This document shows, piece after piece, positions 3,497 through 32,337 of a stretch of DNA of 33,066 nucleotides. The first letter of the stretch is position 1. Each line of letters opens with the position of its first letter. This DNA comes from Eubacteriales bacterium (GTDB taxonomy: Bacteria > Bacillota > Clostridia > Oscillospirales > CAG-272). The translations under genes and the position numbers were made by a program. Below the pieces are notes generated by a model, which saw only the letters and a list, made by a program, of their open reading frames with translations, ran no database searches and was not told the DNA's origin. The stretch lies in NCBI GenBank assembly GCA_045533315.1, contig JAZSHN010000101.1, forward strand, positions 1 to 33,066. The letters are read 5' to 3'.

Positions 3497-3955
3497 CTAA
3501 CAATACATTCCCGATGCCGCGAGGTAGGAATAGAGCTTTTCGCCGTGGTCCTGCTCCTCCTTTTGAATGTGGGCGAGCGTATCGCGAAGGGTTGTGGAGT
3601 TAAATTCAAACACGCCCGTGTTATAAACACCCGAAACGTGCTTTTCCATTGAGAGCGCGTCCTTGCAAAGGTAGGCGTCGTTGTTCTTGTCAGCCACAGA
3701 GCAGGACGAGGGTGCGCCGTTGTACTTTGCCTCTGCCGCACTCTTTGGCGTTTTGGGCATCGCAACCTCCTCCCCGTTCATAATGCGGTTGATGGTGTCG
3801 AGGTGTGATACCTCCGCGGTTTTGATTTCGTTAAAGAGCGATTTGAGCTGTGGGTCACAGGCGGCATCGGCATATTTGCCGTACTTTTCGATGCAAAGCT
3901 CCTCCTGTGCCTTCAGGTCCTTCAGAATGCTTGTTTCCTTCTGTGTGAGTGTCAT
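3497..3955 (-). CDS. Spore coat protein / ferritin-like (Coat F-related) protein
   Basis: Two helical halves with ExxH motifs (EVSH, EQDH) and DPQLKSLF; typical of clostridial 'spore coat protein'. Confidence 0.75.
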   Translation of the reverse strand: MTLTQKETSILKDLKAQEELCIEKYGKYADAACDPQLKSLFNEIKTAEVSHLDTINRIMNGEEVAMPKTPKSAAEAKYNGAPSSCSVADKNNDAYLCKDALSMEKHVSGVYNTGVFEFNSTTLRDTLAHIQKEEQDHGEKLYSYLAASGMYC

Positions 3956-14242: not shown

Positions 14243-16606
14243 TTACCGTTTTATTTCGGTGTCCACGCGCTCCGCGTATCTTACCGCGCCCATCGCATCG
14301 GGGGCATAGGCATCCGCCCCAATCATTTCGGCATATTCTGCGGTAAGCACCGCGCCGCCGACGATAATTTTAACACGGGGTGCCTCCTTTTTGAGAAGTG
14401 CAACCGTTTCTGCCATTGCGGGTACGGTAGTTGTCATAAGAGCAGAGAGAGCGACGATTGCCGCATTATTCTCCCTTGCCGCATTTAAAACGCGGCTCGG
14501 CGGCACGTCACGTCCGAGGTCGATAACGCGAAAGCCGTAATTTTCAAGAAGCAGCCTTACTATATTTTTGCCGATGTCGTGAATATCCCCCTCCACGGTT
14601 GCGATAACCACAGTGGAGCGCGAGGGCTTTTCGCCGTTTGCCGATGCCGACTTGATTACCTCGAATGCGGCTGCCGCCGCCTCCGCCGCCGTGATAAGCG
14701 AGGGCAGATATATCTTTCCCGTTTCATAGCCGACACCAACCGCATCAAGCGCGGGAATAATATCCTCTCCGATTATATCGAGCGAGGCTTTGCTCTTTAT
14801 CAATTCGCCCGTTATTTTTGCCGCGCGGTCCTTCATTCCGCGCTCTATGGCACAGGAAAGCGTCATATCCGCATCGTTTACCGCGGCGCACTCGATTGCC
14901 CTCCCATTTGCATAGGAGAGATAGCCGACACAGCCCGCATCCCCGCCCGAAAGGGTCAGATACGCGTGATACGCACCCATAATTTTTTCTGCAAACGGGT
15001 TAAGAATTGCCGCCGAAAGCCCCGACGAAAGCGCCATCGTCAAAAAGGTCGCGTTGATGTTATCCCTTTCGGGCAGACCAAATGAAACGTTTGACACACC
15101 GAGCGAGGATTTGTAGCCCATATCGCCTATCATTTTTACCGCGCGCAGGGTCTCGTTTGCCGCGTTAATATTCGTGCTTACCGTCAGGCAAAGCGGGTCG
15201 AACACAAGCTCCCGCCCGTCAATTCCGTACCTCGCCGCCTCCTTGATAATTTTTTTCGCGACAGCCACCCTGCCCTCCGCGGTTTCGGGAATTCCGTCCT
15301 CGTCAAGCGTTATGCAGATAACCGCACCGCCGTATTTTTTAACAAGCGGGAAAATTTTATCCATGCTTTCCCTTTTTCCGCTTACAGAGTTGACGAGTGC
15401 CTTTCCGTTATAGACACGAAGCGCCGCCTCCATAGCCACAGGGTCGGAGCTGTCGATAACAAGCGGAAGTGAGGTTACCGCCTGAATTTCGCTTACTGCA
15501 CGGGGCAGAAGCTCTGCCTCGTTAATTTCGGGAAGCCCCACGTTTACGTCGAGAAGCTGACAGCCCGCCTCCTCCTCTTTAAGTGCCTCGCGGAGAATGT
15601 AGTCTATATCCCCGTCGCGAAGAGCCTCCTTAAAGCGTTTTTTACCCGTCGGATTAATTCGCTCTCCGATAACGGTGGGGGGCGTGCCGATTTTCACAAG
15701 CTGTGAGTAGGAGGTCACGGCGGTGTGCGCCTCTGCCGCGGGCTTTACGCGCGGTACTTTGCCTATCGCATCCGAAAGAGCCGAAATATATTCGGGCGCA
15801 GTACCGCAGCAGCCCCCGAGAGCCGAAGCTCCGAGCGCGGAAATTTCCGTCATAACGGCGGCAAAGTCGGCGGGTGAAACGTCGTAAACGGTGCGACCTC
15901 CCTCCATTCGCGGCATTCCCGCATTCGGTTTAATTAACACGGGTACGGTGGAGTATGCCAAAAGCCGACCCGCAACCTCCTTCATTTTATCGGGCCCGAC
16001 CGAGCAATTTGCACCAAGCATATCCACACCCATAGAGGACATTGTCACGGCGACAATTTCGGGTGTAGAGCCTGTAAAAAGCCGTCCGTCCGCGCCAAAG
16101 GCAAAGGATACGAAAAGCGGCAGATCGCACGCCTCCCTCACACCTATGACCGCGGCACGAGCCTCGTTAAGGTCGCCAAGGGTTTCGAGAAATACCGCGT
16201 CGACGCCCGCCTCCTTTCCGATTTTCGCAACAAAAGAAAACGCATCCACCGCGGCTTCAAATTCAAGGTCGCCGAGTGGCTTCAGCATTTTACCCGTAGG
16301 CCCTATATCAAGCGCGATAATGCAGTCACCCGCCGCCTCGCGCGCCCTTTTTGCACATTCCACGGCGGCATTCACGCTTGCGCGCAGGGCTTGCTCGTCC
16401 ATTTTGAATTGATTTGCTCCAAAGGTGTTGGTGCATATAACACGCGCACCCGCCCTTATATATTCGGCGTGAATTTCGGTGACCGCTTCGGGGTGGGAAA
16501 GGCACCATTCCTCGGGCGGAGTGCCGACGGGGAGACCGCGAGAGAGCAAAAGGCTTCCCATTCCGCCGTCAAGCATCAATATTTTATCGTCAAGAGAAAA
16601 TCTCAT
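14243..16606 (-). CDS. metH: Cobalamin-dependent methionine synthase (homocysteine, pterin and B12-binding domains; no activation domain)
   Basis: DGGMG, TNTFGAN, GANC, GGCCGT, IGERINPTGKK, GVSNVSFG and GDIHDIGKNIV motifs. The start is MRFSLD after an AAAGGAG RBS. Confidence 0.93.
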   Translation of the reverse strand: MRFSLDDKILMLDGGMGSLLLSRGLPVGTPPEEWCLSHPEAVTEIHAEYIRAGARVICTNTFGANQFKMDEQALRASVNAAVECAKRAREAAGDCIIALDIGPTGKMLKPLGDLEFEAAVDAFSFVAKIGKEAGVDAVFLETLGDLNEARAAVIGVREACDLPLFVSFAFGADGRLFTGSTPEIVAVTMSSMGVDMLGANCSVGPDKMKEVAGRLLAYSTVPVLIKPNAGMPRMEGGRTVYDVSPADFAAVMTEISALGASALGGCCGTAPEYISALSDAIGKVPRVKPAAEAHTAVTSYSQLVKIGTPPTVIGERINPTGKKRFKEALRDGDIDYILREALKEEEAGCQLLDVNVGLPEINEAELLPRAVSEIQAVTSLPLVIDSSDPVAMEAALRVYNGKALVNSVSGKRESMDKIFPLVKKYGGAVICITLDEDGIPETAEGRVAVAKKIIKEAARYGIDGRELVFDPLCLTVSTNINAANETLRAVKMIGDMGYKSSLGVSNVSFGLPERDNINATFLTMALSSGLSAAILNPFAEKIMGAYHAYLTLSGGDAGCVGYLSYANGRAIECAAVNDADMTLSCAIERGMKDRAAKITGELIKSKASLDIIGEDIIPALDAVGVGYETGKIYLPSLITAAEAAAAAFEVIKSASANGEKPSRSTVVIATVEGDIHDIGKNIVRLLLENYGFRVIDLGRDVPPSRVLNAARENNAAIVALSALMTTTVPAMAETVALLKKEAPRVKIIVGGAVLTAEYAEMIGADAYAPDAMGAVRYAERVDTEIKR

Positions 16607-16676
16607 AAATGCTCCTTTCCGTCGCAAGCGCGACAAGCGAAAAATAAATTTGGGGCGGTTGGAAAAGAGGGCTTGC

Positions 16677-17279
16677 CTATCGGCTTTTCTCGCAAATTCC
16701 GACAATCGCGCTGACCGATTTTGTAGGTGTCATCAAAAGCCCGTCGGTAAGTCCCACGCCGATTTTTCCCTCGGGCGAGAGCAGACGGAATATTTCGCGC
16801 TGAAATTCAAGCGAAAGGTCGCCGTAGCCCGGGCTGAAGCGAGGTCTTACCTCACGTCCCAAAGCCTCCGCTTGCTCGGCAAGCTCGCGACAAAAGAGGT
16901 CGCAAAGCATCTCCACCCGTTCGGAGGCGAGTGCCGAAATCGCAAGAGCGAGCGACGGCGACAGGCTTGAATACCGCTTAATAAGCCTATCCGCCTCTAT
17001 TCCGACGGTAGCAACGAAAACAACAGCACGCGTCGCACCGAAAGCTCGTCCCGCAAGTCCGCGAGAGCTGCAATTCAGCCCGCCGAGTCTTACCTCGTCG
17101 CCCGACACCGAAAGGGGTAGCTCGGTGTAGCAGACGCGGGGAGAAAGCCGCGGCAAAAGCTCCGCCTCCGCGCGGGACAAAAGAGCCGAATGCTCCTCCG
17201 TCGCAGCCTTTACACACATATGACGTAGCGCCTCCGCCACGTCGGGGGGCGGAAGAATATAATTTTTTACAAATACCAT
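16677..17279 (-). CDS. Stand-alone methionine synthase activation (SAM-binding) domain protein
   Basis: RFSPGYGDL and MTPTKSVSAIVG; located between metF and metH. Confidence 0.88.
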   Translation of the reverse strand: MVFVKNYILPPPDVAEALRHMCVKAATEEHSALLSRAEAELLPRLSPRVCYTELPLSVSGDEVRLGGLNCSSRGLAGRAFGATRAVVFVATVGIEADRLIKRYSSLSPSLALAISALASERVEMLCDLFCRELAEQAEALGREVRPRFSPGYGDLSLEFQREIFRLLSPEGKIGVGLTDGLLMTPTKSVSAIVGICEKSR

Positions 17280-17297
17280 TTTTACTCCGAGTGGGGT

Positions 17298-18176
17298 TTA
17301 CTTTCCGATTATATCCGAAAGGTTTTCGGTGATTTTTTCTGCCACGTGCGGCTTATTCATCGAGTACACGTGCACGCTTTTGACCCCCATTGCAAAGAGG
17401 TCGATTATCTGGTCGGTGGCGTAGGCTATGCCCGCCTGACACATTGCGGCGGGGTCGTCGCCAAACCTTTCGAGAAGTGCCGTATATCTGCGCGGAAGAT
17501 AACAGCCCGAAAGCTCCACCGCGCGCTTGATTTGCCTTGCATCGGTGATGGGCATAATTCCCGCAACCGTCGGCACGCTTATTCCCGCGCCCTGCGCCCT
17601 GTCAAGAAAGTCATAGAAAAGACCGTTGTCGAAAAACATCTGTGTGGTAAGGAAATCCACCCCCGCATCAACCTTTTCCTTTAAATGACAAAGGTCCTCC
17701 GTCGCTGATTTGCTTTCGGGATGCCCCTCGGGATAGCATGCCGCCCCGATACAAAGGTCATACCCGCCCGCGCGTATCTCGCGTATAAGGTCGGAGGCAA
17801 AGCGATAGTCAAGACGGGCGCGGTCCCCCTCGTCAAAGTCGCGCGGAATATCTCCGCGAAGCGCCATAACGTTTTTTATTCCCATTTTCGTCATATCCGA
17901 AAGCCTTTCCCCAACGGTTTTTCTCGTGGAGGAAACACAGGTCAGATGAGCAACGGTGGGGACACCGTATTTTTTCTCTATGCTGCTTGCAAGCTCAAGG
18001 GTATATCGGCTCGTGCCGCCGCCCGCACCGTAGGTCACGCTCATAAAAGACGGCGAAAGCGCGGCAATTTCCTCGGTCGCGCGCATCACGCTTTCAAAGG
18101 CGGTGTCGGTTTTGGGAGGAAATACCTCAAAGGAAAGCGAAAGCCCCTCCCGCTTGAATATATCTGTCAATTTCAT
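17298..18176 (-). CDS. metF: 5,10-methylenetetrahydrofolate reductase
   Basis: SFEVFPPK, SVTYGAGG, AHLTC, ALRGD, YPEGHPE and TQMFFD. The start is MKLTD after GAGG. Confidence 0.96.
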   Translation of the reverse strand: MKLTDIFKREGLSLSFEVFPPKTDTAFESVMRATEEIAALSPSFMSVTYGAGGGTSRYTLELASSIEKKYGVPTVAHLTCVSSTRKTVGERLSDMTKMGIKNVMALRGDIPRDFDEGDRARLDYRFASDLIREIRAGGYDLCIGAACYPEGHPESKSATEDLCHLKEKVDAGVDFLTTQMFFDNGLFYDFLDRAQGAGISVPTVAGIMPITDARQIKRAVELSGCYLPRRYTALLERFGDDPAAMCQAGIAYATDQIIDLFAMGVKSVHVYSMNKPHVAEKITENLSDIIGK

Positions 18177-18349
18177 TTTCAAATCCTCAAGGTCAGTGAC
18201 TGCCCGCAATTTCGTTACACGGGTCGGCGCACCGTATTTTTTCACCCGCAGGCGAAGGAGCGTAAAGCCTTTCGCACGCGCGAAAGGTATTAGGTAATCG
18301 AATAGACCGCGGCAAAGAAGCCATTCGTCCGCGCGAAAGGGGTGTCGAA

Positions 18350-20058: not shown

Positions 20059-22164
20059 TCAAATAAATTTACGTCTGAATATGAAGAAAAGCACCGCGCC
20101 GAGCGTTACCGTTCCGCCCACGCTCGCGACTATAATAACGGTTGTGTCGCCGTTCTTCTCTTGAGGCTGCTCTCCGCCCTTGGTCGCGGGGATAATATCC
20201 ACAAGCTCGTCACCGCAGACGGTGCAAACCGAGCGCTCAAAGCCGTTTGTGCTTTCGGTCGGCTCCTTCACGACCTCCCTTTCGCCGTATGAGTGGTCGG
20301 CGTAGGGAAGCTTTGTTCCCTTTACAAGGAGCTTGTCGCATCTTTCGCAATGCTCGTCACCCGAATAGCCGAATTCGGAGCAGGTTGCCTCCCTTGCCCC
20401 CTTTACAACCGTGTTTTCGTGGGGGCAAAGCACGGGATTTATATACTCGCGGCTTTCGCTCTTGCCACATCCGCCGCAAGCGCGGATTTCGGTTTCGCCG
20501 TCCTCGCCAACCTCCCAATCGCCAAAGCTGTGATTTTCGGTTGCGGGAATTTCCGCACCTGTTGCAAGCCTTTCGCCGCAGGTCTTGCAATATGTGTCAC
20601 CGCTGTATCCGACCTCGCCGCAGGTTGCCGCCTTCGCGTCGCGAAGCTCTGTTTCGGTGTGTGTGCAAGCGGGCTGCTCGGGCTGCTCGCCGTCGGGCTC
20701 GGCATAGAAATGAGCAACGTAGTACGTCGCACTGTCTATCTCGGATATCGGGTTGGTGGAAATAGACTCGTAGGTTCCCGAGGAGCCCATAAAGAATTTC
20801 TCGCCCGTTGAAGATGTGTAAACAAGCGTCTTATGAGCGCTGTCGTAGGTAAAATACTCGGCGGGAACGGTGGCGGTAAGCTCCATTGTTCCCTTTGCGG
20901 TGTTACCGTCTCTCGGGTACATTCTTACGTAGGTTTTAACCCCGTCCTTGTAGAAAAAGAGCCTGTATGCGCCCTCTGTGTCGGCTACCGCCTCGAGGTA
21001 AACGTCGGCAGCCTGTTCAAAACTATCGGTTTCGCCAAGATACCAGGGGTATTCGGGTTTAAATACGTCGCCGTTAAAGAAAACCTCCTTATCAAGGCTT
21101 CCGTGGAAAAGTCCAAGCTTGTATGCAGTGCCCGTGGCAGGATTTTCAACAACTACGGGAGCATTATCCTCCGCGGGAGGCTCGGGAGTTACAACGTCAC
21201 CGCCGCCTATATCATCTCCGCCGCCTATATCGTCACCGCCGCCTATATCGTCACCGCCGAGGCTTCCGCCCGATGCCTTGCCCGACGGGGTTGCCATATC
21301 GGTGGGAACGGACTTTCCGAAAATGAGCCAAGCATATTCGGGGTAGTCGATAAATACGTTTCTGTTCCCCTGTATTGCGTAAACAACCTCGTTACGACCC
21401 ATTTCCCATGTATCAACAGGGTCAAGTTCACACCATTCAAGAAGCACGTCAACGCTTTGAAAAACCTCCGTAACGCTGTCGCAGCCCCAAGAAGAGCCCC
21501 ATCTTACCCACATATAAAGAACTATTCTTGCAACGTCACCCTTCGCATTGTCGTTAGGCTCAAAGAAGCTTCCGGAATAGGTTCCGCCAACAGTACCGGA
21601 GAGGTTTCCCGTGCTGGTTGAACCGCCCGAAACGTTGCCGAATTTTTTATTTCCACGGTTAGAATTTGTTTTGTTTTCGTCGGGTCGAATATGGTGAAGG
21701 TCAGCACCGCCTCCCGACGTGTTATCGCCGCCAAGAGATTGTGGCCAAACGTGCTCCCGGTTCCAGCCGTTACCGCTGTTGTACTCCGAATAGGTTGCTT
21801 CGTAGGAGGAATAGAGCATTATGATTTTACCGTTCTCGTTCTCACAGTCGGTTTTAGTGGCATAATCGCGGCAATTGTCGTACGAGGTTACCTTTTTATG
21901 CGTGCTTGTCATAAGAGTACGAAGCGATTGAAAAACCGTATCCTTTGACATTTGAGAGAGCGTATCAAAGGCATAGCTTCCCGTATAGTAGCCAGCCGCA
22001 GTAGTACCGTCAAGCGTCGTACAAACAACGTCCCTTTCTCCCGAGTTGGAGGTGGAGGAATATTTCGACGGCTGACCCGCTGCGGATGTTGGAAGAATAA
22101 CCAACGATACCAAAAGCGAAACAAGCATCAAAAGCGCAAGAGCGCGCAGCTTCAGATTTTTCAT
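20059..22164 (-). CDS. Secreted, membrane-anchored endonuclease I (Bsn/EndA-type His-Me finger) with Cys/His-rich repeats
   Basis: Signal peptide; WNREHVWPQS, DLHHIRP, NSNRGN and KGDVAR..LYM motifs; ATCxExGYSGDxxCxxC repeats; C-terminal TM segment followed by RRK. Confidence 0.9.
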   Translation of the reverse strand: MKNLKLRALALLMLVSLLVSLVILPTSAAGQPSKYSSTSNSGERDVVCTTLDGTTAAGYYTGSYAFDTLSQMSKDTVFQSLRTLMTSTHKKVTSYDNCRDYATKTDCENENGKIIMLYSSYEATYSEYNSGNGWNREHVWPQSLGGDNTSGGGADLHHIRPDENKTNSNRGNKKFGNVSGGSTSTGNLSGTVGGTYSGSFFEPNDNAKGDVARIVLYMWVRWGSSWGCDSVTEVFQSVDVLLEWCELDPVDTWEMGRNEVVYAIQGNRNVFIDYPEYAWLIFGKSVPTDMATPSGKASGGSLGGDDIGGGDDIGGGDDIGGGDVVTPEPPAEDNAPVVVENPATGTAYKLGLFHGSLDKEVFFNGDVFKPEYPWYLGETDSFEQAADVYLEAVADTEGAYRLFFYKDGVKTYVRMYPRDGNTAKGTMELTATVPAEYFTYDSAHKTLVYTSSTGEKFFMGSSGTYESISTNPISEIDSATYYVAHFYAEPDGEQPEQPACTHTETELRDAKAATCGEVGYSGDTYCKTCGERLATGAEIPATENHSFGDWEVGEDGETEIRACGGCGKSESREYINPVLCPHENTVVKGAREATCSEFGYSGDEHCERCDKLLVKGTKLPYADHSYGEREVVKEPTESTNGFERSVCTVCGDELVDIIPATKGGEQPQEKNGDTTVIIVASVGGTVTLGAVLFFIFRRKFI
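21195..21259 (-). repeat. 18-bp tandem repeat, about 3.5 copies, encoding GGGDDI
   Basis: cgtcaccgccgcctatat units in the linker after the nuclease domain. Confidence 0.9.
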
Positions 22165-23076: not shown

Positions 23077-24078
23077 ATGTGCGATAACAAAAGACCCGAC
23101 GGTATGCTCCGAATCAATACAAAGGAGCTTGCAAATTCATTCATTGACGAGCAGATTAAAAAGGTAAGAGAGCAGGTTGGAGATAAAAGGGTTCTTCTCG
23201 CTCTTTCGGGCGGAGTTGACTCCTCGGTTGTAGCCGCCCTTCTTATCAAGGCAATCGGCAAGCAGCTCGTTTGCGTGCACGTAAACCACGGTCTTATGAG
23301 AAAGGGAGAGTCGGAGCAGGTTATCGACATCTTTGGAAGGACGCTTGACGCAAATCTCATTTACATTGATGCAACCGACCGTTATCTGAATCTTTTGGCG
23401 GGAGTTTCCGACCCCGAATCAAAGAGAAAGATAATCGGAAAGGAATTTATCGAAATTTTTGCAGAGGAAGCAAGAAAGCTCGAGGGCATTGAATTCCTCG
23501 CACAGGGTACAATCTACCCCGACATTCTTGAGAGTGTAAAGGCGGCAGAGGGTAAAAAGGCGGTCAAATCCCACCACAACGTTGGTGGGCTTCCCGAGGA
23601 CCTCAAGTTTGAGCTTGTTGAGCCAATAAAGCTCCTTTTCAAGGACGAGGTAAGAGTTGTCGGAGAGGCGCTCGGACTTCCCCACGCGATGGTTTACCGT
23701 CAGCCGTTCCCCGGTCCCGGACTTGGCGTAAGATGCCTTGGTGCAATTACGCGCGACCGTCTTAACGCACTTCGCGAGGCGGATGCAATCCTTCGCGAGG
23801 AGTTTGACATCGCGGGACTTAACGAAAAGGTATGGCAGTATTTCGTGGTTATCCCCGACATCAAGAGCGTCGGCGTAAAGGACGACTCCAGATACGAGGG
23901 CTGGCCCGCAATCATTCGCGCCGTAAACACCACCGATGCAATGAGCGCAACGGTCGAGGAAATTCCCTACGCCGTCCTTCACAAAATCACCGCGCGCATC
24001 ACCTCCGAGGTTGAGGGCATCAACCGCGTCCTCTACGACCTCACCCCAAAACCCGTCGGAACGATTGAGTGGGAATAA
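23077..24078 (+). CDS. guaA: GMP synthase, synthetase (ATP-PPase plus C-terminal) part only
   Basis: LSGGVDSSV, LAQGTIYPD, KSHHNVGGLP, RQPFPGPGL and KPVGTIEWE motifs; GGAGG RBS. No glutamine amidotransferase domain is present. Confidence 0.93.
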   Translation: MCDNKRPDGMLRINTKELANSFIDEQIKKVREQVGDKRVLLALSGGVDSSVVAALLIKAIGKQLVCVHVNHGLMRKGESEQVIDIFGRTLDANLIYIDATDRYLNLLAGVSDPESKRKIIGKEFIEIFAEEARKLEGIEFLAQGTIYPDILESVKAAEGKKAVKSHHNVGGLPEDLKFELVEPIKLLFKDEVRVVGEALGLPHAMVYRQPFPGPGLGVRCLGAITRDRLNALREADAILREEFDIAGLNEKVWQYFVVIPDIKSVGVKDDSRYEGWPAIIRAVNTTDAMSATVEEIPYAVLHKITARITSEVEGINRVLYDLTPKPVGTIEWE

Positions 24079-24173: not shown

Positions 24174-24523
24174 ACTCAAAAAGTGCCGTAAAGCCTTGAT
24201 TTTCGGGCAAAAGTGTGAATAAAATAATTGTTTTATCTCATTCGCTGTGGATAAAAATTTTTGCCCCGATGACGATAGAAAGGTTTGTCAAAGACACGAA
24301 TAAATCCAAAGCTCCGTTGCTTTTTATCCGTATTTGTATTTTTTCTGTTATACCACCGCCAAAAGGCATCGGTGCCGTTTTGGGGGCTGCAGCTCCGCCG
24401 TTTGGATTTGAAATCCTGCGCTTGGCACTCGGCATTTCTCGCGTTTGACAGTCAATGCTCCCCGATTGGCTCTCGGTATTCCCCGCACTTGGCGGCTGCA
24501 ACGCTGCAATCCGTGCCGCATAC

Positions 24524-24552
24524 AAAAACCGACCCGTTTTCAGGGTCGGTTT
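24524..24552 (-). terminator. Intrinsic terminator after surface-protein gene B
   Basis: aaaaaccgaccc...gggtcggttt. Confidence 0.8.
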
Positions 24553-24623
24553 CTTCCATTATTAATATATCGCTGATAGATATGTTGATTTTTTCTGCGA
24601 CTACCGCGGCGCGGGCGGAAAAA

Positions 24624-27218
24624 TCAATTTTCACCCGTAATCTTCTTTACGATTACCGCGACAATTTCGCTTACGCCGCAATTTGCACGTACCGATGCGA
24701 CCGCCACTCCCGCGAGCGCATCGATTTCGGAAATAATCGCATTTGCGACACCGTTGTATGCATTATATTCGGTGAGATAATACTCCATTGCCTCTGCGAC
24801 TCCCGCATAGCTTGTGTCGGCGTTTGCAGCATACATATAGCAATTAACGAGAGCGAGGTATTTTCCCTCCTCCTCGGTTTCGGCGCGAAGAAGCTCCACG
24901 GCAACAAGGAAATCGTTAGATGCCTTTTCCATCGACTCAAGGCGGAAGGTCATCTCGTCATAGATTTTAAGCTCGTTCTGAATCGTTTCGTCGCCGACGT
25001 TCATTGCGAAGTAAAGCTCCTGTGCCTTGTTATAAAGCGAGAGAAGCTCCGCATATCCCGTCGCGGTGGACATAAGATTTACGGTATTCTTAAAGATAGC
25101 GGTATTTTGAACGAGAACGTCGTTGTAGTCGTCCTTGTACTGCTCAAGCTCGCTTTCGTAGATATAAAGACGAATAACCGCCTCCTCTACAAGCTCATGC
25201 TCAAGCGAAATATCCGCCGTCGATATATAGGCACGAAGGTGCGCGCAAATTCCCACCTTTTCAACGTAGCCCGTCGCTACAAGATATTTTTCAAGCATTG
25301 CGTTGATATATTCCGCATGCTCCCTTTGAAGAAGACCGTAGAAATACTCGTCCGCGGTATAGAAGAATTCAAGTGCCTCGGCAACGCCGGCAACGGTGTC
25401 GTCGTAGTTTATAACAAGCTTTCCGTTTTCGTCCTCAACCCTTTCGTTTACGACCTTACGCACGATAACGATGTATCTGTTGATATAATCGTAGTTTGCC
25501 TCCCACTGTTCAACCGTGGTGTACTCGGAGATAAAGGAGATGCAGTCGACGATAGTCTTGGAATTCTTTTCGCGAATTTTTTGAGCAAGAAGCTCCGCGC
25601 CCGACTCGTAAAGCTCAAAGCACTCCTTGAATCTTTCAAAGCCCTCGCTGTTCAGAACGGTGCGGTCAATTATAAGGTCATAGGCATCGACAGCGTTCTG
25701 ATAATGCTTTTGCATTACGTCCGCGCCGAATTTCGTCGCGGAATAAAATTTATCCACGGCGTTACAAAAGGCAAAGATGCTGCGGTCGTTGCCGATTGCC
25801 ACGGAAATATTGTCGTACCTTCCCTTTATATCAATGTAATCGGAGTCCTCCGATGTAAGAATATCCGCGCCGCAATCATTCAAGAAGGCTTCAATTTGGG
25901 CAAAAGCCGTAGCTCTGTCCTCCACGTTATCGAGCGTACGCACCTGATTTTCAAGGAACTCGTCAACAAGCGCTCCGAACCTTGTGAGGTTGTCGGTTAT
26001 ATAATCAAGATAAAGAGCTTCATATCCCTCCGAAGCGAAGGTGTTAAAGCCGTTTACCGCCTCCTCGAGCCTTGCGTTAAGCTCTGCAAGAGCATCGGCA
26101 TCCATCTCTGTGTCCACTACGGGAAAGAACTCGCCGTCCTCGTAATATTTTTCAAGAAGCTTGCTCGCCTCCTTATACGCGGTGACACGGTCAGCATTCG
26201 GAGCGTCAAGGCTGCTTGCGTACTCGCTGTAAAATACGAACTTCTCGGGCTCGGTCATTTTCTCAAAGAGGTCGGGAGTGCGGAGATAGGAGCCCTCGTA
26301 TGCAATAAAGTTATCTATGGAAACCTCCGAGCTTAAGCAATCGGGGTTAGAGGTTCCGTAACGGAATATCGAAAGCTCGTAGTGAGAAACACCCGCGGGC
26401 CTTGTATCCCAGCGAGCAATGTATTCATAATCGACGTAAAGGGTTACAAAGCAGGTGTCCGACTCGTAAATCAAGGAAATGTGAGTCCATTCGCCGTTAA
26501 AGCCAAGCTTTACTTGGGAAAATCTTTCCTTTTCCTCTGCGGTAAGCTCGTAGCCCGACTTGCAGCTTTTACCGACGAGCGACGGAGAAATGCTTCCGTC
26601 TGCCTTTATTTCAAGTATTCACGGCTGTGCTCCTCCGCCCGCACCGGTGGAAACCGTCGAATGCTCAAATCCCATAACGGGATACGCCTTGCCAAAGGAG
26701 GTGACATCAAGCTCGATTACGAGATTGTTTTTCTGTGTACGGTTAGACACGCTTATATAGGGGTAAGAATGTATTGCGCCGTTTGCCGCCTCGTACTCCT
26801 TTTCCGCCGCACCGTTATATCTCACAACAAAGTGCGCGTTTCCGTTTTCCTCGTGCTCGACGCGTATATCGTTAACGCCGACGTCGGAAAGAATCTGTCC
26901 CCACGGGGTGTTAACGGTCGTTCCCGATTTCTTCCATCCGACAAGCTCGGGAGTTCCATCCTCCCATGTTAAAGGTCCCTGTATTACAGGAAGAGCATAT
27001 TGCTTTAGGGGTGTTGCCGCCTCGATAGCCGCAAGCCTGTCGGCGAGAATGGAATCCATTTCGGGGGTTTCCCCTGGAGTTACCTCCGGAGCAGCTGTAC
27101 CGTCGCCGTTGGTCTCGGGCTCGGTCGACTCCGAATTTGCAAACGCGGTGGTAAGCACACCGAACGAGAGCGCAAGGACGAGCGCAAGGACAAGGAATAT
27201 CCTTTTAAAGTTCTTCAT
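24624..27218 (-). pseudogene. Large secreted protein B (~864 codons) interrupted by one in-frame TGA at 26619-26621; paralogue of 27486-30392
   Basis: ORFs 26619-27218 and 24624-26474 are in the same frame. The 48 codons between them are open (ILEIKADG...GEWTHIS) and align with the paralogue. There is an N-terminal signal peptide. Pseudogene, recoding and sequence error cannot be told apart from sequence alone. Confidence 0.75.
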
Positions 27219-27269
27219 AAATGTTCTCCGTTCATTGAAAGAAGTATCAAGATATTTTTACACATTATA

Positions 27270-27298
27270 ATAATAGCACACGCGCGTCCGTTTTTCAA
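27270..27298 (-). promoter_or_regulatory. sigmaA promoter of gene B
   Basis: TTGAAA-17-TATTAT with a TGTG extension. Confidence 0.65.
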
Positions 27299-27444
27299 GA
27301 GATTTTAAATATTTTGTCAAATATAACAAATCAATTCGTATTCTGTCACAAAACTTTTTGCCGTCCGCCCGCCAATGCGGCTTTGACGGGAGCGAGCAAC
27401 GCCCGCGCCAAGGGCGTATTCACCGCGGCACACTCCGACGTAAT

Positions 27445-27471
27445 AAAAAGCCCCTCGGTAATCCGAGGGGC
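27445..27471 (-). terminator. Intrinsic terminator after gene A
   Basis: The minus strand reads gcccctcgga-tta-ccgaggggc followed by TTTTT. Confidence 0.85.
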
Positions 27472-27485
27472 GAATCAAAGAAGAA

Positions 27486-30392
27486 TTATTCAAAGATTTT
27501 ATTAATGATTACCGCGATAATGGAGCTGACACCGCAATTGGCACGTACCGAGCCAACGGTAACGCCAATGCTTTCGATAACCTCTATCGTTGCGGTTGCG
27601 GCGGAGTTGTACGCCTCGTACTCCGCGTTAAAGTATTCCATTGCCTCCGCAACACCGTCGTAGGTAAGAACGGCATCCTTGCTGTAAGCATAGCAATTTA
27701 CGAGGGCGGCATATTTGTCCTCCTCGGTATCTGCGGTACGGAGAATTACAACCGCATCAAGGAAGCGAGTAGAGGATATTTCGCCCGTTTCAAAGTAATC
27801 GGTATGCTCGTCGAATACTGCGATAGCCTCCTTTGCGCCGGGGTAATTCGCATTGAGAGCAAAGTAGAAGCCGATTGCCTTGTCGTAAAGCTCGCGCTTT
27901 TCGTTGAAGTCGTTGCTTATACGCATCTTCTCTACAAGAGAAACGAAGTAGGAAGCATTCTGGTTAAGAACAATTTCGTAATCAACCTCTCTGAACGCAA
28001 GCTCCTCAAGCGCGGTCTCGTAGTTGGAAATGAGCGCAGCCATTTCGGGATTAGTTCTGTCGATATCGTTGCTCTCAAGGTATCTGGTGATATAGGAGAG
28101 CGTTCCGCTTTTTTCGATATAAGCGTCGTTGTTGTAGACGAAATCAAGTCTTGCGGCAATTTCCGCGATATGAACCTTCTGAAGAAGACCGTAGAAGTAT
28201 TCGTCCATCGGAGCGAATGCCTCCATCACCTTATCAACACCCTCGTAATCATAGTTATAGTAGTTCTCGGCAATCGTGCCTCTGATCATAATTACATAGG
28301 GATTGATATAATCGTAATTTGCCTCCCACTCGGACGGGTCAAATCTCGAAATAAGCTCGTAGCAGGAAATAATCTTCTGCGAGTTCTGGTCTCTTTCAAC
28401 GCCCTCTATTCTCGCGGCAGCGTGAGAGTAAAGCTCGTATGCGACTGCAAACGCCTCAAAGCCCTCAAGCTCTGTTTCCCTTGAGTCGAGAGGATAGGAT
28501 GCGTCGTTGAAGATTTGATATGCGAGGTTGTAGTATTTGCGAAGCGCGTTGAGCGTCTCAACCTTTGCATAAACCTCCATATACTTATTGAAAACGAGAA
28601 TATTTTCGTCAATGTAGCGGTTGCGCTGACACTTAACGTAATTTTCAAACGCCGCCCTGTAATCCTCGTTTTCGTCAATCAAGCCGTCCGTGGAAACTAT
28701 AAAGTCCTCTATCTTGGTAACCGCCTTTTTACGGTTATCGATGCTCGCGGCGGTAAGCTCGCGCGTGATTGCAAGTGCCTCGTTAACATACTGTATGAAC
28801 AGCTCGCGGTTAGAGATTTTGAGGTTTTCAACGAATGCGGTAGCGTCAAAGCCCACCATTTTCTCTACGGCAGCCTGAACCTCCGCGGTGAGTGCGGCAT
28901 AAGCCTCGTCGGTAAGCTCGCCCTGCTCGAACGGCTTGAAGCTTCCGTCCTCGTTGGTGTAATTTTTAAGCAATGCCTCCGCATTCTTCTTGGATTCATA
29001 TCTTCCAAGCGTATCGGTGCTTGCATCGTTGGTGTAGTAGTTAGCGTAGTAAACGAATCTTTCCTCGTCGGTCATTCTCTCAAACATACCGAGGTCGCGA
29101 AGCGCGGTGCCCTGATATACCTGAAGGTTATCGATGGACCATTCGCCGACGTTGGTGGCTGCGGAAAAACGAATATTCGTAAGTTCGTAGTGGAAGCCGA
29201 AAACCTTTCCGCTATACGTGCCGAGAAGCTCGTACTCGCAGTAAACGGAGTAGGTGAAATCGTCGGGGTTGAAGATTACGGTGTAGTGCATCCACTCGCC
29301 TTGTGTGATACTGTTTTGAAGAAGAACGCCCGCGGGGCCGTCCTTTCCGTCCTCGGTCTTGAAGAAGGATTTACCCGCATCGGGGCTGTCTTGCGAAATT
29401 TTTACCGTACCGTCAGTAAGTATTTTGAAATAGGAGGCATAAAGCTTCATTGAGTCACTGTCCCATTTCTCCTTAAGCTTGGAGGCATCTCCGTCGCCGA
29501 GAGCCTTGTGTCCTCCACCCTCAAGGTGGAAGCCTTCGCCCGCGACCATATCTCCAAAGGTTGTAAAGTCGAAATCTACAACGACGCCCTTTGCGGTAAA
29601 GCCGGAGGAGTAGCTCGACTGTACGTAGGTGTTGGTTCTTCCGCTGTTGCCCTCGTAATTGATGGTGAGATAGCCGTCCTGTGTCGTAACGGTGCTGCTA
29701 CCCTTGTTTCCCACAACCGTGAAGGGGTGAGAGCCGACGAAGTCGGTGTCGTACATCGTGGAAAGCTTATACGCATCGAGAGTACCGCCCGCAAGCATTG
29801 CCTGACGGTTTGCCTCTCTTGCCTCGTCCTGAAGCGCGATACGAGTCTGTGCCTCAAGCATCATAGCCTTGTACTCCTCGGACTCCGTGTCGCAAAAACC
29901 GCGCTTTACGAAGGCGTTGAAGTTGTTGATTGCGATCTGATTTCTTGCGGTGCTTGTAACCGTTTCGGAGGCAATTTCATCAAAAAACGCCTTCGCAACA
30001 GAAAGTGCGGCACCCTTAACGTCACCAATCTCCTGCTCCGCAATTTCATAAGCGGCGGAAATGGCGTTAAGCTTGTCAAACTCCCATTGGGCGGTAAGGG
30101 GAGCAGAAGCGTCGATAGCCGAACAAATGGTGGTAGCTACGTTAAGCGCAGCAGCCCGCGCAGAAGCTATCGAATCGGCATAACCCTCTGCCGCGGGGTC
30201 AACCGTGGGTATGTAGCTCGCAATATCCATAACGGCATTGTAGCCGTTGGGAGCCGTTTTAACGCCCTCGATTTTTGTGTTCAGCTCCTCTACCGTTCCC
30301 GTATAATCCTCTGCAAAGCCGCCGATAACAAGACCGAGGCAAAGCGCGGTAACGAGAAGCAAAAGAGCCGAAATCTTTTTCAAATTCTTCAT
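27486..30392 (-). CDS. Large secreted protein A (968 aa): signal peptide, helical region, ConA/LamG-like beta-sandwich and long helical C-terminal region
   Basis: MKNLKK-hydrophobic-GFA signal peptide; AAGGAG RBS. GEWMHYTVIF..YSVY...WSIDNLQVY is typical of ConA-like folds (inference). Confidence 0.9.
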   Translation of the reverse strand: MKNLKKISALLLLVTALCLGLVIGGFAEDYTGTVEELNTKIEGVKTAPNGYNAVMDIASYIPTVDPAAEGYADSIASARAAALNVATTICSAIDASAPLTAQWEFDKLNAISAAYEIAEQEIGDVKGAALSVAKAFFDEIASETVTSTARNQIAINNFNAFVKRGFCDTESEEYKAMMLEAQTRIALQDEAREANRQAMLAGGTLDAYKLSTMYDTDFVGSHPFTVVGNKGSSTVTTQDGYLTINYEGNSGRTNTYVQSSYSSGFTAKGVVVDFDFTTFGDMVAGEGFHLEGGGHKALGDGDASKLKEKWDSDSMKLYASYFKILTDGTVKISQDSPDAGKSFFKTEDGKDGPAGVLLQNSITQGEWMHYTVIFNPDDFTYSVYCEYELLGTYSGKVFGFHYELTNIRFSAATNVGEWSIDNLQVYQGTALRDLGMFERMTDEERFVYYANYYTNDASTDTLGRYESKKNAEALLKNYTNEDGSFKPFEQGELTDEAYAALTAEVQAAVEKMVGFDATAFVENLKISNRELFIQYVNEALAITRELTAASIDNRKKAVTKIEDFIVSTDGLIDENEDYRAAFENYVKCQRNRYIDENILVFNKYMEVYAKVETLNALRKYYNLAYQIFNDASYPLDSRETELEGFEAFAVAYELYSHAAARIEGVERDQNSQKIISCYELISRFDPSEWEANYDYINPYVIMIRGTIAENYYNYDYEGVDKVMEAFAPMDEYFYGLLQKVHIAEIAARLDFVYNNDAYIEKSGTLSYITRYLESNDIDRTNPEMAALISNYETALEELAFREVDYEIVLNQNASYFVSLVEKMRISNDFNEKRELYDKAIGFYFALNANYPGAKEAIAVFDEHTDYFETGEISSTRFLDAVVILRTADTEEDKYAALVNCYAYSKDAVLTYDGVAEAMEYFNAEYEAYNSAATATIEVIESIGVTVGSVRANCGVSSIIAVIINKIFE

Positions 30393-30427
30393 AGTAATCT
30401 CCTTAAAATCGATTCTACACTGCCAAC

Positions 30428-30456
30428 ATTATAGCATTAATATTTTAGCGTTTCAA
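30428..30456 (-). promoter_or_regulatory. sigmaA promoter of gene A
   Basis: TTGAAA-17-TATAAT with a TG extension. Confidence 0.75.
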
Positions 30457-30789: not shown

Positions 30790-32337
30790 CTACCCTCTTT
30801 TCCAATATTTACGGTCAAGAGAACGGTACATTATTGCCTCTGCTATATGGTCCTCTCCGATAACCTGCGCACCGTCAAGGTCGGCAATTGTGCGGGCAAC
30901 GCGAAGCACTCTGTCGTGTCCTCTTGCCGAAAGACCGAGCTTTTCAAACGCCTCGCGCATAAGGCTTGACGCCTCGTCGGTAAGGACGCAATGGCGGCGA
31001 AGCATTTCGGTTGACATATTTGCGTTAAGCACGCCCGTTTTATCTCCCGCGGCGGCAAGACGCTTGTTGGTAAACTCTCTTGCGGAATTTACTCTCTTTC
31101 TTATATTCTCGCTCGGCTCGCCGTGTATTCCCTTTCCCGCAAGGTCGTTATAGGACACCGAGGGAAGCTCTATTTCAATATCTATTCGGTCAAGAAGCGG
31201 GCCCGAAACCTTTTCGAGATATTTCGCAATCGTCGCGGGGGTGCAGGAGCAGCGGCGGTTCGGGTCGCCGAAATATCCGCAACGGCAGGGGTTCATCGCG
31301 CAAACGAGCATAAACTTTGCGGGATAGGTAATCTTCGCGGCGGCGCGCGTAACGGTAACAACCCCGTCCTCCAGCGGCTGGCGAAGCCCCTCGGTTACCT
31401 GCTTTGAAAATTCGGGAAGCTCGTCAAGGAAAAGCACACCGTTGTGTGCGAGCGAAATTTCACCCGGGCGGGGATACGCACCTCCGCCGACAAGCCCCGG
31501 CATACTCACGGTATGGTGGGGCGAGCGAAACGGTCGTTCGGTTACGAGCCCCTTGCGAAGCTTTCCACTTACCGAGTGGATTTTCGTGGTTTCGAGCGCC
31601 TCCTCGAAATCCATATCGGGAAGGATTGAGGGCAAACGCTTTGCAAGCATCGACTTTCCCGTACCGGGAGGGCCAATCATAAGCACGTTGTGACCGCCCG
31701 CCGCCGCAACCTCAAGCGCGCGCTTTGCACGGAGCTGACCGCATACGTCGTAAAAGTCAAGCGTTTTTTCATGGCGGGAAAGGTCAAGCTCCGAAAAGCT
31801 CGTGGGGGTTGGCTCAATCGGGCTGTTACCCTTGAAATGCTCGACCGCCTGACGCAGGGTTTTCACCCCGAAAACGGTGATGCCCGAAACAACCGATGCC
31901 TCAAGCGCGTTGTCAAACGGGACGTAAATCTCCTTAAATCCGAGGTCACGGGCGGAAACCGCCATCGACAAAACGCCGCTTACCGCGCGAAGCTCGCCCG
32001 AGAGCGAAAGCTCGCCGACAACGCACTTGTCGGAAAAATCGTATTCGCGCGAAATAACGCCGTCGCTTTGCAAAATTGCAAGAATGATGGCAAGGTCAAA
32101 AACCGTACCCTCCTTTTTAACGTCGGCGGGCGCGAGGTTTATCATTATATCAAGCGCGGGAAAGACAAATCCGCTGTTTTCGCAGGCGGATTGCACGCGA
32201 TTTTTCGCCTCCTTTACCGCCGCATCGGGAAGTCCGACAAGCTCGAAGCGCGGCATTCTGTCCCATGCGCTGCACTCCACCGTTACCGAAAATCCGTCAA
32301 TACCCATAACTCCCGAGGAATAAATTTTAGATAGCAT
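30790..32337 (-). CDS. comM: YifB/ComM family Mg-chelatase-like AAA+ ATPase
   Basis: VGLPDAAVKE, NLAPAD, GELSLSG, GPPGTGKS, PFRSPHHT, LAHNGVLFLDE, AMNPCRCG and ARTIADL; the gene is intact. Confidence 0.96.
   Translation of the reverse strand: MLSKIYSSGVMGIDGFSVTVECSAWDRMPRFELVGLPDAAVKEAKNRVQSACENSGFVFPALDIMINLAPADVKKEGTVFDLAIILAILQSDGVISREYDFSDKCVVGELSLSGELRAVSGVLSMAVSARDLGFKEIYVPFDNALEASVVSGITVFGVKTLRQAVEHFKGNSPIEPTPTSFSELDLSRHEKTLDFYDVCGQLRAKRALEVAAAGGHNVLMIGPPGTGKSMLAKRLPSILPDMDFEEALETTKIHSVSGKLRKGLVTERPFRSPHHTVSMPGLVGGGAYPRPGEISLAHNGVLFLDELPEFSKQVTEGLRQPLEDGVVTVTRAAAKITYPAKFMLVCAMNPCRCGYFGDPNRRCSCTPATIAKYLEKVSGPLLDRIDIEIELPSVSYNDLAGKGIHGEPSENIRKRVNSAREFTNKRLAAAGDKTGVLNANMSTEMLRRHCVLTDEASSLMREAFEKLGLSARGHDRVLRVARTIADLDGAQVIGEDHIAEAIMYRSLDRKYWKRG

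Follow-up and report, generated by a model that had tools for sequence, protein, structure and literature searches.

A large unnamed protein family of uncultured gut Clostridia with a LamG/ConA-like domain and a helical-repeat array, represented by two old paralogues

Introduction

For Clostridia of the gut and rumen that are known from metagenomes alone, almost no surface proteins have, to our knowledge, been characterised. In the window (the whole stretch of 33,066 nucleotides that was analysed), two large genes, A and B, stand in tandem on one strand, each with a signal-peptide-like N-terminus. In a first-pass annotation the pair was read as a modular surface system (S-layer-like, adhesin or glycan-binding) whose exchangeable ConA-like heads are assembled or anchored by a conserved stalk; taken as a two-gene model, A and B would co-assemble through that stalk. 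We asked what kind of proteins these are, whether the two depend on each other and whether they are likely to be held at the cell envelope.

Gene layout and expression signals

Both genes were found on the minus strand at the positions first assigned to them, and the 968-residue frame of A was intact as described. The features are listed below.

30428..30456, minus strand: promoter-like site of A (motif scan), TTGAAA-17-TATAAT, TG extended, 11 of 12 consensus positions
30404..30399, minus strand: ribosome-binding site of A, AAGGAG, 6 nt ahead of the ATG
27486..30392, minus strand: gene A, 968 aa, intact, TAA stop
30312..30392, minus strand: A residues 1-27, signal-peptide-like hydrophobic N-terminus (...GGFA/ED), from the model helix 2-26 and hydrophobicity
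29766..30311, minus strand: A residues 28-209, N-terminal helical module (N-module), the fastest-evolving part of A
29103..29765, minus strand: A residues 210-430, LamG/ConA-like beta-sandwich (FDFTTFG, GEWMH, SIDNLQVYQG)
27567..29102, minus strand: A residues 431-942, helical-repeat array of long-helix/short-helix units
27489..27566, minus strand: A residues 943-968, conserved tail, ...VGSVRANCG... followed by a 14-aa amphipathic hydrophobic helix ending KK/NK-IF
27450..27471, minus strand: intrinsic-terminator-like hairpin 3' of A (scan), 9 pairs, 8 of them G-C, with a T-run
27349..27320, minus strand: second promoter-like site of B
27270..27298, minus strand: promoter-like site of B (motif scan), TTGAAA-17-TATTAT, TG, 10 of 12 consensus positions
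24624..27218, minus strand: gene B, 864 codons and a TGA stop, interrupted at codon 200
26619..26621, minus strand: in-frame TGA, codon 200 of B, within the beta-sandwich
about 24524..24550, minus strand: hairpin and T-run 3' of B (ACCGACCC / GGGTCGGT), read by eye and missed by the terminator scan

The architecture of B is that of A minus the N-terminal helical module, and its hydrophobic N-terminus ends ...AFA/NS; a signal peptide on each gene had been proposed and is borne out. All eight peptide motifs listed in the first-pass annotation were found once per protein in A and B. The mature proteins are acidic (pI 4.4) and contain 7 and 10 cysteines.

The promoter-like sites upstream of both genes, the strong hairpin after A and the hairpin after B agree with the earlier assignment of a promoter and a terminator to each gene. 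A and B each form a separate transcription unit. An Rfam search of the window gave no match. Rare-codon avoidance was stronger in A and B than in all other window genes. The codons TTA, CTA and TCA are nearly absent, which accounts for long antisense ORFs (683 aa opposite B and 991 aa opposite the homologue at related locus L006); these were rejected as genes.

Interruption of gene B

B had been taken for an open frame of about 864 aa, and the in-frame TGA at codon 200 had been overlooked. It leaves ORFs of 199 and 616/664 aa that share one reading frame. A 97%-identical orthologue of B is intact, without the interruption. At codon 200 the orthologues carry Arg (8 of 11), Val (2 of 11) or Lys (1 of 11). 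Recoding of TGA or selenocysteine was considered and ruled out, TGA being the ordinary stop of four of the 16 window genes checked, B's own end included; the residues of the orthologues also contradict it. Gene B here is a pseudogene, or the sequence contains a base error. One nonsense codon would inactivate B in this genome. Since B is interrupted, A would be the working copy, and a partnership of A and B is not required.

Fold of the beta-sandwich

The AF2 model of full-length A (pLDDT 86.5) has strands at residues 212-426 and is all alpha-helical outside the sandwich, so that both the ConA-like head and the helical stalk of the first-pass annotation are recovered. The sandwich matched domain-sized ConA-like PDB structures in Foldseek (probability 1.00, TMt 0.43-0.54), including the alginate lyases 3gne and 6kzk, the putative glycosyl hydrolase 3u1x and the sialidase CBM 2w68, and viral LamG-named proteins in BFVD match A structurally. 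By all three (AF2 model, Foldseek and BFVD), A contains a jelly-roll beta-sandwich of the ConA/LamG type. The family profile gave a weak match to pentraxin PTX3 among PDB sequences (E 0.004). Laminin_G_3 (PF13385) was matched by seven of 35 relatives at E<=0.01, and its gathering score was reached among the 35 by P0040 only (27.8 against 27.6 bits). Residues 210-430 of A thus share their fold with LamG/ConA-like lectins (PF13385, pentraxins), although the domain makes up only about 22% of A and neither A nor B has a Pfam match, both staying below the PF13385 gathering score. Five sandwich residues are near-invariant (D275, W367, R408, D421 and N422) and could be structural or could serve to bind a ligand such as a carbohydrate or calcium.

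The nine best whole-chain Foldseek matches of A were NTNH or BoNT chains (E 1.7e-6 to 4.8e-5), with a Cry1Ca chain at rank 45. A toxin-like protein was weighed, in which a helical bundle and a jelly-roll, as in the translocation and HCN domains of clostridial neurotoxins/NTNH or in three-domain Cry toxins, would act on the membranes of other cells. The order of a helical region followed by a LamG-like jelly-roll resembles the HN-HCN part of the neurotoxins, and the hydrophobic C-terminal helix would suit such a role. A preprint (10.1101/220806) states that the BoNT lineage acquired a large helical bundle and a LamG-like domain from a source described there as unknown. The matches themselves, however, have TM-scores of 0.11-0.15 and rmsd of 26-33 Å, and plain phage LamG proteins reach the same E-values. 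There is no sequence signal: the family profile gave 12 matches among PDB sequences at E<=10, none of them BoNT or NTNH. Protease and trefoil domains are absent; a long helical array, not a trefoil, comes after the sandwich, and the 50 fold matches listed for that array include neither BoNT nor NTNH. The genes lie on the chromosome, in a syntenic housekeeping context with no immunity or accessory gene, and tblastn against phage and plasmid collections gave no match. We consider a toxin highly improbable, and kinship of the N-module and sandwich with the HN-HCN unit of the neurotoxin lineage still more so.

Helical array and C-terminal tail

The AF2 model of A residues 436-968 had a pLDDT of 91.1. 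The C-terminal array spans about 510-530 aa in repeat units of about 65-70 aa, each a long and a short helix; internal helical repeats were detected by hhalign (probability 86-95%) for four of 45 segment pairs. Foldseek of this region against the PDB gave no match at E<=0.001 (best E 0.015, TM <= 0.18), and the domain, as modelled, has no PDB fold neighbour. Its sole Foldseek neighbours, all weak, were alpha-solenoids (Sel1-like, TPR/HAT, HEAT/ARM), from which it differs in the lack of a significant match or Pfam repeat family and in unit length (65-70 rather than 34-45 aa). A homodimer prediction for two copies of A residues 495-968 scored 0.00 (mark 0.42); it was run without controls and has no bearing either way on self-association.

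Conservation across the family is 1.7-2.2 bits per column in the C-terminus, 1.0-1.8 in the sandwich and 1.1-1.3 in the N-module. The C-terminal third is the best-conserved part, as had been noted, and within the array of A it is residues 676-942 (WEANYDYIN, DEYFYGLLQ, KYAALVNCY, GVAEAMEY) that are best conserved. Arg950 of the tail is retained by 153 of 184 members. The tail helix has a median <H> of 0.48 and a muH of 0.43, and 112 of 144 tails lie more than 1 sd above their own shuffles; in the remaining short repeat helices <H> is close to 0. A KD19 of at least 1.6 is reached by just 28 of 185 tails, and the hydrophobic stretch is about 10-12 aa long. By these measures the tail is neither long nor hydrophobic enough to span the membrane. 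The final repeat keeps the long-plus-short helix pattern of the other repeats, and the tail could be the last capping helix of the array.

The family

Profile searching returned 263 clusters (50% identity) at E<=1e-30 and 1115 at E<=1e-3; nearly all of the best 150 of the 1115 matches were full length. Members share a fixed architecture: behind the signal peptide come 0-5 helical modules and a LamG/ConA-like sandwich, then helical repeats over about 510 aa and, at the C-terminus, a 14-aa amphipathic helix. The N-terminal KD19 is at least 1.6 in 176 of 185 family proteins, and A, B and the family are predicted to be exported via Sec. The N-module, of about 170 aa, occurs once in A and not at all in B. 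Its copy number is the variable feature across the family (0 copies in 44 members, 1 in 98, 2 in 13, 3 in 17, 4 in 7 and 5 in 1), and N-module repeats give rise to the long forms, which reach 2600 aa.

Sandwich and C-terminal region were both present in 180 of the 184 members examined, and the remaining four look truncated. A search with the stalk only found 49 proteins, in which Laminin_G_3 was the sole Pfam domain; no other head was recovered. The idea of exchangeable heads should be dropped. Homologues that pair the same stalk with different heads were absent among the members examined, an outcome that the first-pass annotation had itself named in advance as speaking against its proposal.

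No match for A or B was found in Pfam, NCBIfam, PADLOC or PHROGs, in accord with the earlier statement that they belong to no recognised family. The NCBIfam search covered the whole proteins and their last 60 or 293 aa, with TIGR04073 as the sole weak match (E 0.095, 12.8 bits against a cut-off of 50). A search of PDB sequences with A gave nothing at E<=1. The ESM Atlas gave only weak unnamed matches for the whole protein, with recognition below the usual mark, and no usable match among named clusters for the helical part. Keyword search of open-access text found no description of the family, which is weak evidence of absence. The family is large, unnamed and found in uncultured gut Clostridia.

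Relationship and evolution of A and B

A and B align end to end over 774 columns with 31% identity (E 3e-91), far beyond chance. Identity rises from 26% in the beta-sandwich through 29% (helical residues 431-675) and 41% (residues 676-942) to 69% over the 26-aa tail. A gradient thus exists, as expected from the described variable head and near-identical stalk, but it is gentler than that description, the helical part being only 29-41% identical. In the family tree, the smallest clade that holds both A and B comprises 101 of 181 leaves, and A clusters with the single-copy type to the exclusion of B (support 0.994). By end-to-end homology together with separate deep clades, A and B are old (anciently diverged) paralogues. 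Their best shared DNA stretch is 28 nt at 96%, the other stretches being 71-75% identical. Gene conversion between the two was rejected for want of long identical DNA tracts.

Related loci were sought with an alignment of 22 closer sequences. The tandem arrangement occurs here and at L001, and of the five related loci whose downstream DNA is available, four have just one copy. Two pairs of A-like and B-like relatives come from contigs of equal size (P0003/P0026, both on 276,489 nt; P0008/P0027, both on 192,710 nt). These observations, with the C-terminal blocks common to A and B, are what speaks for a dedicated two-part system. It is contradicted by the single-copy loci, the nonsense codon in B, the deep separation of the two clades, the absence of DNA tracts hinting at exchange between copies and the homologous sandwich in 180 of 184 members. 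We regard the two-gene model as very unlikely.

The positional homologue at L004-L007 is about 30% identical, against 81-82% for comM and 72-74% for the amidase. Relative to L001, A has a dN of 0.17 and B one of 0.24, against 0.02-0.05 for the neighbours; the two genes evolve 4-10 times faster than the syntenic genes around them. Exposed proteins often evolve fast. The fastest part of A is the N-module (57% identity, dN/dS 0.38). With an overall dN/dS of about 0.2, diversifying selection is not supported, and A and B remain under purifying selection. Comparison of A orthologues gives the sandwich and the C-terminus much the same conservation (82% against 84% identity), so the sandwich is not a hypervariable tip.

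Several of these properties would fit a self-assembling S-layer-like coat, with the C-terminal part bound to the envelope, the variable N-terminal part forming the exposed lattice and B as a spare or alternative copy: a strong promoter and ribosome-binding site, a terminator for each gene, the strongest rare-codon avoidance in the window, acidic mature proteins, fast evolution relative to the neighbours and a dispensable second copy. One half is conserved and one variable; in Lactobacillus S-layer proteins, too, a conserved part binds the wall and another part varies. Of lattice assembly and very high abundance the promoter and codon bias would give indirect hints only. The SLH and CWB2 domains of Firmicutes S-layer proteins are, however, absent from A and B (Pfam, NCBIfam), 7-10 cysteines are unusual for S-layer proteins, and members extended to 2600 aa by added helical modules are unlike a lattice subunit. 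A coat of this kind seems to us improbable.

Envelope attachment and function

Envelope association and ligand binding are inferred. Once exported, the protein would be retained at the envelope by its conserved C-terminal array and amphipathic tail, the latter set into the membrane's outer face or an interface. The fast-evolving N-module or N-modules and the lectin-like sandwich would be exposed on the outside as the ligand-binding part, a carbohydrate being the likeliest ligand. The DD-carboxypeptidase PBP5 is exported and held at the membrane by a C-terminal amphipathic helix. A and B may be likened to it in their signal peptide and the short, strongly amphipathic, hydrophobic helix at their very C-terminus, but show no sequence or domain relation to it. 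Fibrillar adhesins of Gram-positive bacteria are described, in PMC9210967, as a stalk with an adhesive domain. They are likewise exported, fast-evolving and extended by a variable number of repeats, with one binding-type domain; the repeats of the A/B family differ in being alpha-helical rather than Ig-like, and in the module that is repeated, which precedes the binding-type domain in the chain.

No SLH, CWB2, dockerin, LysM, LPxTG, lipobox or NCBIfam sorting signal was found in A or B, and, unlike in sortase-anchored proteins, no sorting-signal model matches their last 60 aa; the lipobox pattern L[AVS][AG]C is absent. This agrees with the first-pass annotation, which had seen no SLH, CWB2, dockerin, LPxTG or lipobox motif. 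No secretion, sortase or glycan-utilisation genes were found near the locus. The want of a known anchoring device, a tail unfit for a membrane span, the lack of such neighbours, the low overall dN/dS, the well-conserved sandwich of A orthologues and the cysteines of the mature proteins are observations against the envelope model.

A signal peptide with no recognised anchor would also suit freely released soluble binding or accessory proteins, possibly polysaccharide enzymes, with the array as a scaffold or substrate-binding solenoid and no attachment to the cell. The ConA-like fold is common to the lyases, glycosidase modules and CBMs among the Foldseek matches, and the tail might be a mere capping helix, the last repeat being patterned like the others. 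Yet the helical region matches no enzyme fold, no catalytic family was matched (Pfam, NCBIfam), carbohydrate-utilisation neighbours are lacking, and the tail is conserved in sequence and far more hydrophobic than the other short repeat helices. Release from the cell is a possible reading to which we give appreciable but clearly lesser weight.

The best explanation as a whole is that A and B are envelope-associated binding proteins and old paralogues, with A as the working copy; we hold it tentatively, at a little short of even chances.

Implications

For annotation, gene B here should be corrected to a pseudogene or a base error. More broadly, a large family without a Pfam or NCBIfam model has come to light, holding a helical domain of about 530 aa without a PDB fold neighbour. 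Should it prove to be merely another secreted protein of unassigned function, it would be ordinary metagenomic dark matter. A bolder reading, which we think unlikely though worth stating, is that array and tail are a new envelope-holding device, that the family forms the main exposed coat or adhesin layer and that the N-modules and lectin-like domain set adhesion and phage or host recognition. If array and tail do act as an anchor, they would show how proteins are held at the envelope in Gram-positive Clostridia of the gut without SLH, CWB2 and LPxTG devices. An envelope-attached binding protein would open a way into the adhesion, phage recognition or host interaction of these bacteria, and possibly a new anchoring principle.

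Gene pair and the interrupted frame

The two genes under study lie on the reverse strand of the window:

27486..30392 (-), gene A, intact frame of 968 codons
24624..27218 (-), gene B, 864 codons, frame interrupted by an in-frame TGA at 26619..26621

The first-pass annotation had given each gene its own promoter, signal peptide and terminator, and all three hold. Promoter-like sites lie upstream of both genes (11/12 with an extended TG for A, 10/12 for B), AAGGAG is found 6 nt upstream of the ATG of A, and both N-termini resemble Sec signal peptides. A strong terminator follows A, and a hairpin with a T-run follows B; the latter was read directly from the sequence and is absent from the list of the terminator scan. 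The eight peptide motifs reported earlier each occur once in A and once in B, the patterns said to be missing (LPxTG and lipobox) are found in neither protein, and neither gave a Pfam or NCBIfam match, in keeping with the claim that no recognised family covers them.

Stop-to-stop listing split gene B into two abutting ORFs in the same frame (26619..27257 and 24624..26618). The DNA at the interruption reads …CAG CCG TGA ATA CTT…, and translation with TGA as X placed an X both at codon 200 and where the gene naturally ends. Recoding was ruled out, TGA being an ordinary stop in four of the 16 window genes checked, the end of B itself included. In an alignment of 11 orthologues of B, the codon-200 column holds Arg in eight, Val in two and Lys in one; the closest orthologue (P0025, 864 aa, 97% identical) is intact with Arg, and that of the related locus L001 has CGT. 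Given this use of TGA and these residues, codon 200 carries either a nonsense change, for which CGA to TGA is the simplest route, or a base error. The earliest in-frame start past it is a TTG 49 codons downstream, and a product begun there would be without a signal peptide. B differs from P0025 at 23 amino acids, four of them within codons 192-201 (window 26616..26645; D>G, R>G, R>stop, M>I), a pattern that could reflect a local hot spot, a variable sandwich loop or locally poor assembly.

A and B were aligned over 774 columns (31% identity, E 3e-91). Their sharing had been placed mainly in the last ~300 aa; the conserved C-terminal blocks stand, but the homology spans the sandwich and the whole helical part. 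Identity climbs from the LamG/ConA-like beta-sandwich (A residues 210-430; 26%) through A residues 431-675 (29%) and 676-942 (41%) to the last 26 aa (69%). Between signal peptide and sandwich, B is without the ~180-aa helical module of A (the N-module, residues 28-209); a short linker rich in Pro, Glu and Thr takes its place. Nothing points to recent gene conversion between A and B, because only short stretches of DNA are shared (28 nt at 96%, the rest at 71-75%).

Family and domain architecture

Word-indexed searches gave 22 relatives of A and 18 of B from Clostridia MAGs, all either without a name or named 'hypothetical protein'. A family profile of 35 sequences was run against 1.84 billion representatives and matched 1115 proteins at E<=1e-3, of which 388 also passed E<=1e-10 and 263 passed E<=1e-30; the match was end to end in nearly all of the best 150 of the 1115. 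On re-scoring 184 family proteins, the sandwich region was found in 182, the C-terminal region in 182 and both in 180. The four exceptions start or end abruptly and resemble truncated ORFs. The 180 full members carry zero (44), one (98), two (13), three (17), four (7) or five (1) N-modules in a simple count, which can overlook weak copies; additional copies occur in family proteins of 1400-2600 aa. Laminin_G_3 was touched by seven of the 35 relatives, one of which reached the gathering score.

Using A residues 676-968 alone as the query, 49 proteins were matched. Their sole Pfam domain was Laminin_G_3 (3/49), so that among the matches listed the stalk is never joined to a different head. The exchangeable heads proposed in the first-pass annotation thus find no counterpart there, and its modular A/B system, in which such heads sit on a conserved stalk, is quite improbable.

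Genomic setting and evolution

The window is ordinary chromosome, with genes for CotF, PrmC, Ddl, TsaD, Rex, DnaD-like and DnaI-like proteins, MetH, MTHFR, an M28 peptidase, a secreted endonuclease I, Amidase_6 and a short GMP synthase, then B, A, a ComM-like protein and ThiF. A genome scan gave seven family loci, all in gut Clostridia MAGs.

Family loci found by the genome scan
L001: tandem pair; A 74% and B 66% identical
L002, L003: sequence ends too soon to tell the number of family genes
L004-L007: single family copy in each; 8.6-10 kb of sequence available downstream

Across loci the flanks are syntenic (identity of ComM 94% in L001 and 81-82% in L003-L007; of the amidase, 90% and 72-74%), and the family gene of L004-L007 is just 29-30% identical to A. 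In a tree of 181 members, A falls in a clade of 16 leaves (support 1.0), which groups with the L004-L007 type, B being outside, in a clade of 36 leaves (support 0.994); the smallest clade containing both A and B has 101 leaves. Because this 36-leaf clade unites A with L004-L007 and excludes B, the comM-adjacent gene is the positional orthologue of A, and B an older paralogue kept in some lineages. The ComM-like gene (window 30790..32337) runs opposite to the family gene in L004-L007 and is co-stranded with it in the window, L001 and L003. In L001, the B orthologue and guaA are separated by ~2.4 kb (15804..18252) with two ORFs (422 and 297 aa); the matching interval in the window is 545 nt only.

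Substitution rates, window versus L001
A: dN 0.17, dN/dS 0.22
B: dN 0.24, dN/dS 0.19
ComM, amidase, nuclease domain: dN 0.02-0.05, dN/dS 0.06-0.10
guaA: dN 0.03, dN/dS 0.23 on a very small dS

The family evolves fast yet under purifying selection. The fastest part of A is the N-module (57% identity, dN/dS 0.38); the sandwich (82%) and C-terminus (84%) are about equally conserved.

The secreted Endonuclease_1 (window 20059..22164 (-), 701 aa) combines GGDDI repeats and Cys-rich CxxC repeats with a hydrophobic segment at the C-terminal side. It is a second fast-evolving exported protein near A and B, since its C-terminal part is ~40% identical to that of L001 as against 96% for the nuclease domain. 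The GMP-synthase-like gene (window 23077..24078 (+)) encodes 333 aa only, comprising ATP-pyrophosphatase and GMP_synt_C without the glutamine amidotransferase domain; as L001 also has the short form (95% identical), this lineage may have a split GMP synthase. Compared with L001, the gene shows an unusually small dS of 0.12, where comM has 0.6. A Coat_F (spore coat) gene at 3497..3955 (-) suggests that the organism forms spores.

Long ORFs lie antisense to family genes (683 aa opposite B, window 24285..26336 (+); 991 aa opposite the L006 homologue, L006 10010..12985 (-)). These open frames are a by-product of codon bias, because TTA, CTA and TCA are nearly missing from A and B (2.1 and 3.5 per 1000 codons); most neighbours have 6-12. 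Such a bias is a hint of high expression.

Structure prediction and fold comparison

The AF2 model of A (pLDDT 86.5, pTM 0.59) consists of a helix (2-26), helices (34-209), strands (212-426), helices (436-942), a low-confidence stretch (944-951) and a final helix (955-967). Residues 436-968 modelled separately (80 sequences; pLDDT 91.1, pTM 0.69) show long helices (~35 aa) that alternate regularly with short ones (~15 aa). The helical body is a repeat array, because hhalign on ten segments of A paired four of 45 combinations at 86-95% probability (576-645/782-852, 782-852/853-913, 495-575/719-781 and the two N-module halves). The helical model gave no PDB match at E<=0.001; the best had E 0.015 and TM <= 0.18, and the weak matches were generic solenoids.

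At TMt 0.43-0.54, the full model has domain-sized PDB matches to ConA-like lectins, CBMs and lyases. Its whole-chain matches are headed by nine NTNH or BoNT chains, which would favour a toxin-like role, but with TMq 0.11-0.15 and rmsd 26-33 Å. The likeness was taken as a generic 'helices then jelly-roll', since ordinary phage LamG proteins match at equal E-values and a search of PDB sequences with the family profile at E<=10 gave pentraxins as best matches (E 0.004) and no BoNT or NTNH chain. A toxin-like role is accordingly very improbable.

Conservation and the C-terminal tail

Information content across 184 members is highest in residues 676-968 (1.7-2.2 bits per column); the values are 1.0-1.8 for the sandwich and 1.1-1.3 for most of the N-module. 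A near-invariant core is retained in the sandwich (V271, D275, W367, R408, D421, N422, G428, R432). The C-terminal motif can be approximated as V-[GC]-S-[VL]-R-x-N-[CS]-G, after which comes [IV][LI]A[VI]I-KK-IF, and Arg950 is conserved in 153 of 184 members.

The tail is no normal membrane span: the hydrophobicity score KD19 reaches at least 1.6 in just 28 of 185 tails and at least 1.2 in 133. NCBIfam sorting-signal models gave no match to it. Its last 14 aa are strongly amphipathic (median mean hydrophobicity <H> 0.48, median hydrophobic moment muH 0.43). Among 144 tails of suitable length, amphipathicity lay more than 1 sd above that of their own shuffles in 112 and more than 1 sd below in none; in the remaining short helices of the repeats <H> is near 0. 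A freely released soluble protein, the main rival reading of the family, is possible but the less probable choice, and an S-layer-like coat is unlikely. We prefer, tentatively and at somewhat below even odds, a protein that the conserved C-terminal array and amphipathic tail would keep at the envelope, where the N-module(s) and sandwich would bind something outside the cell, probably a glycan.
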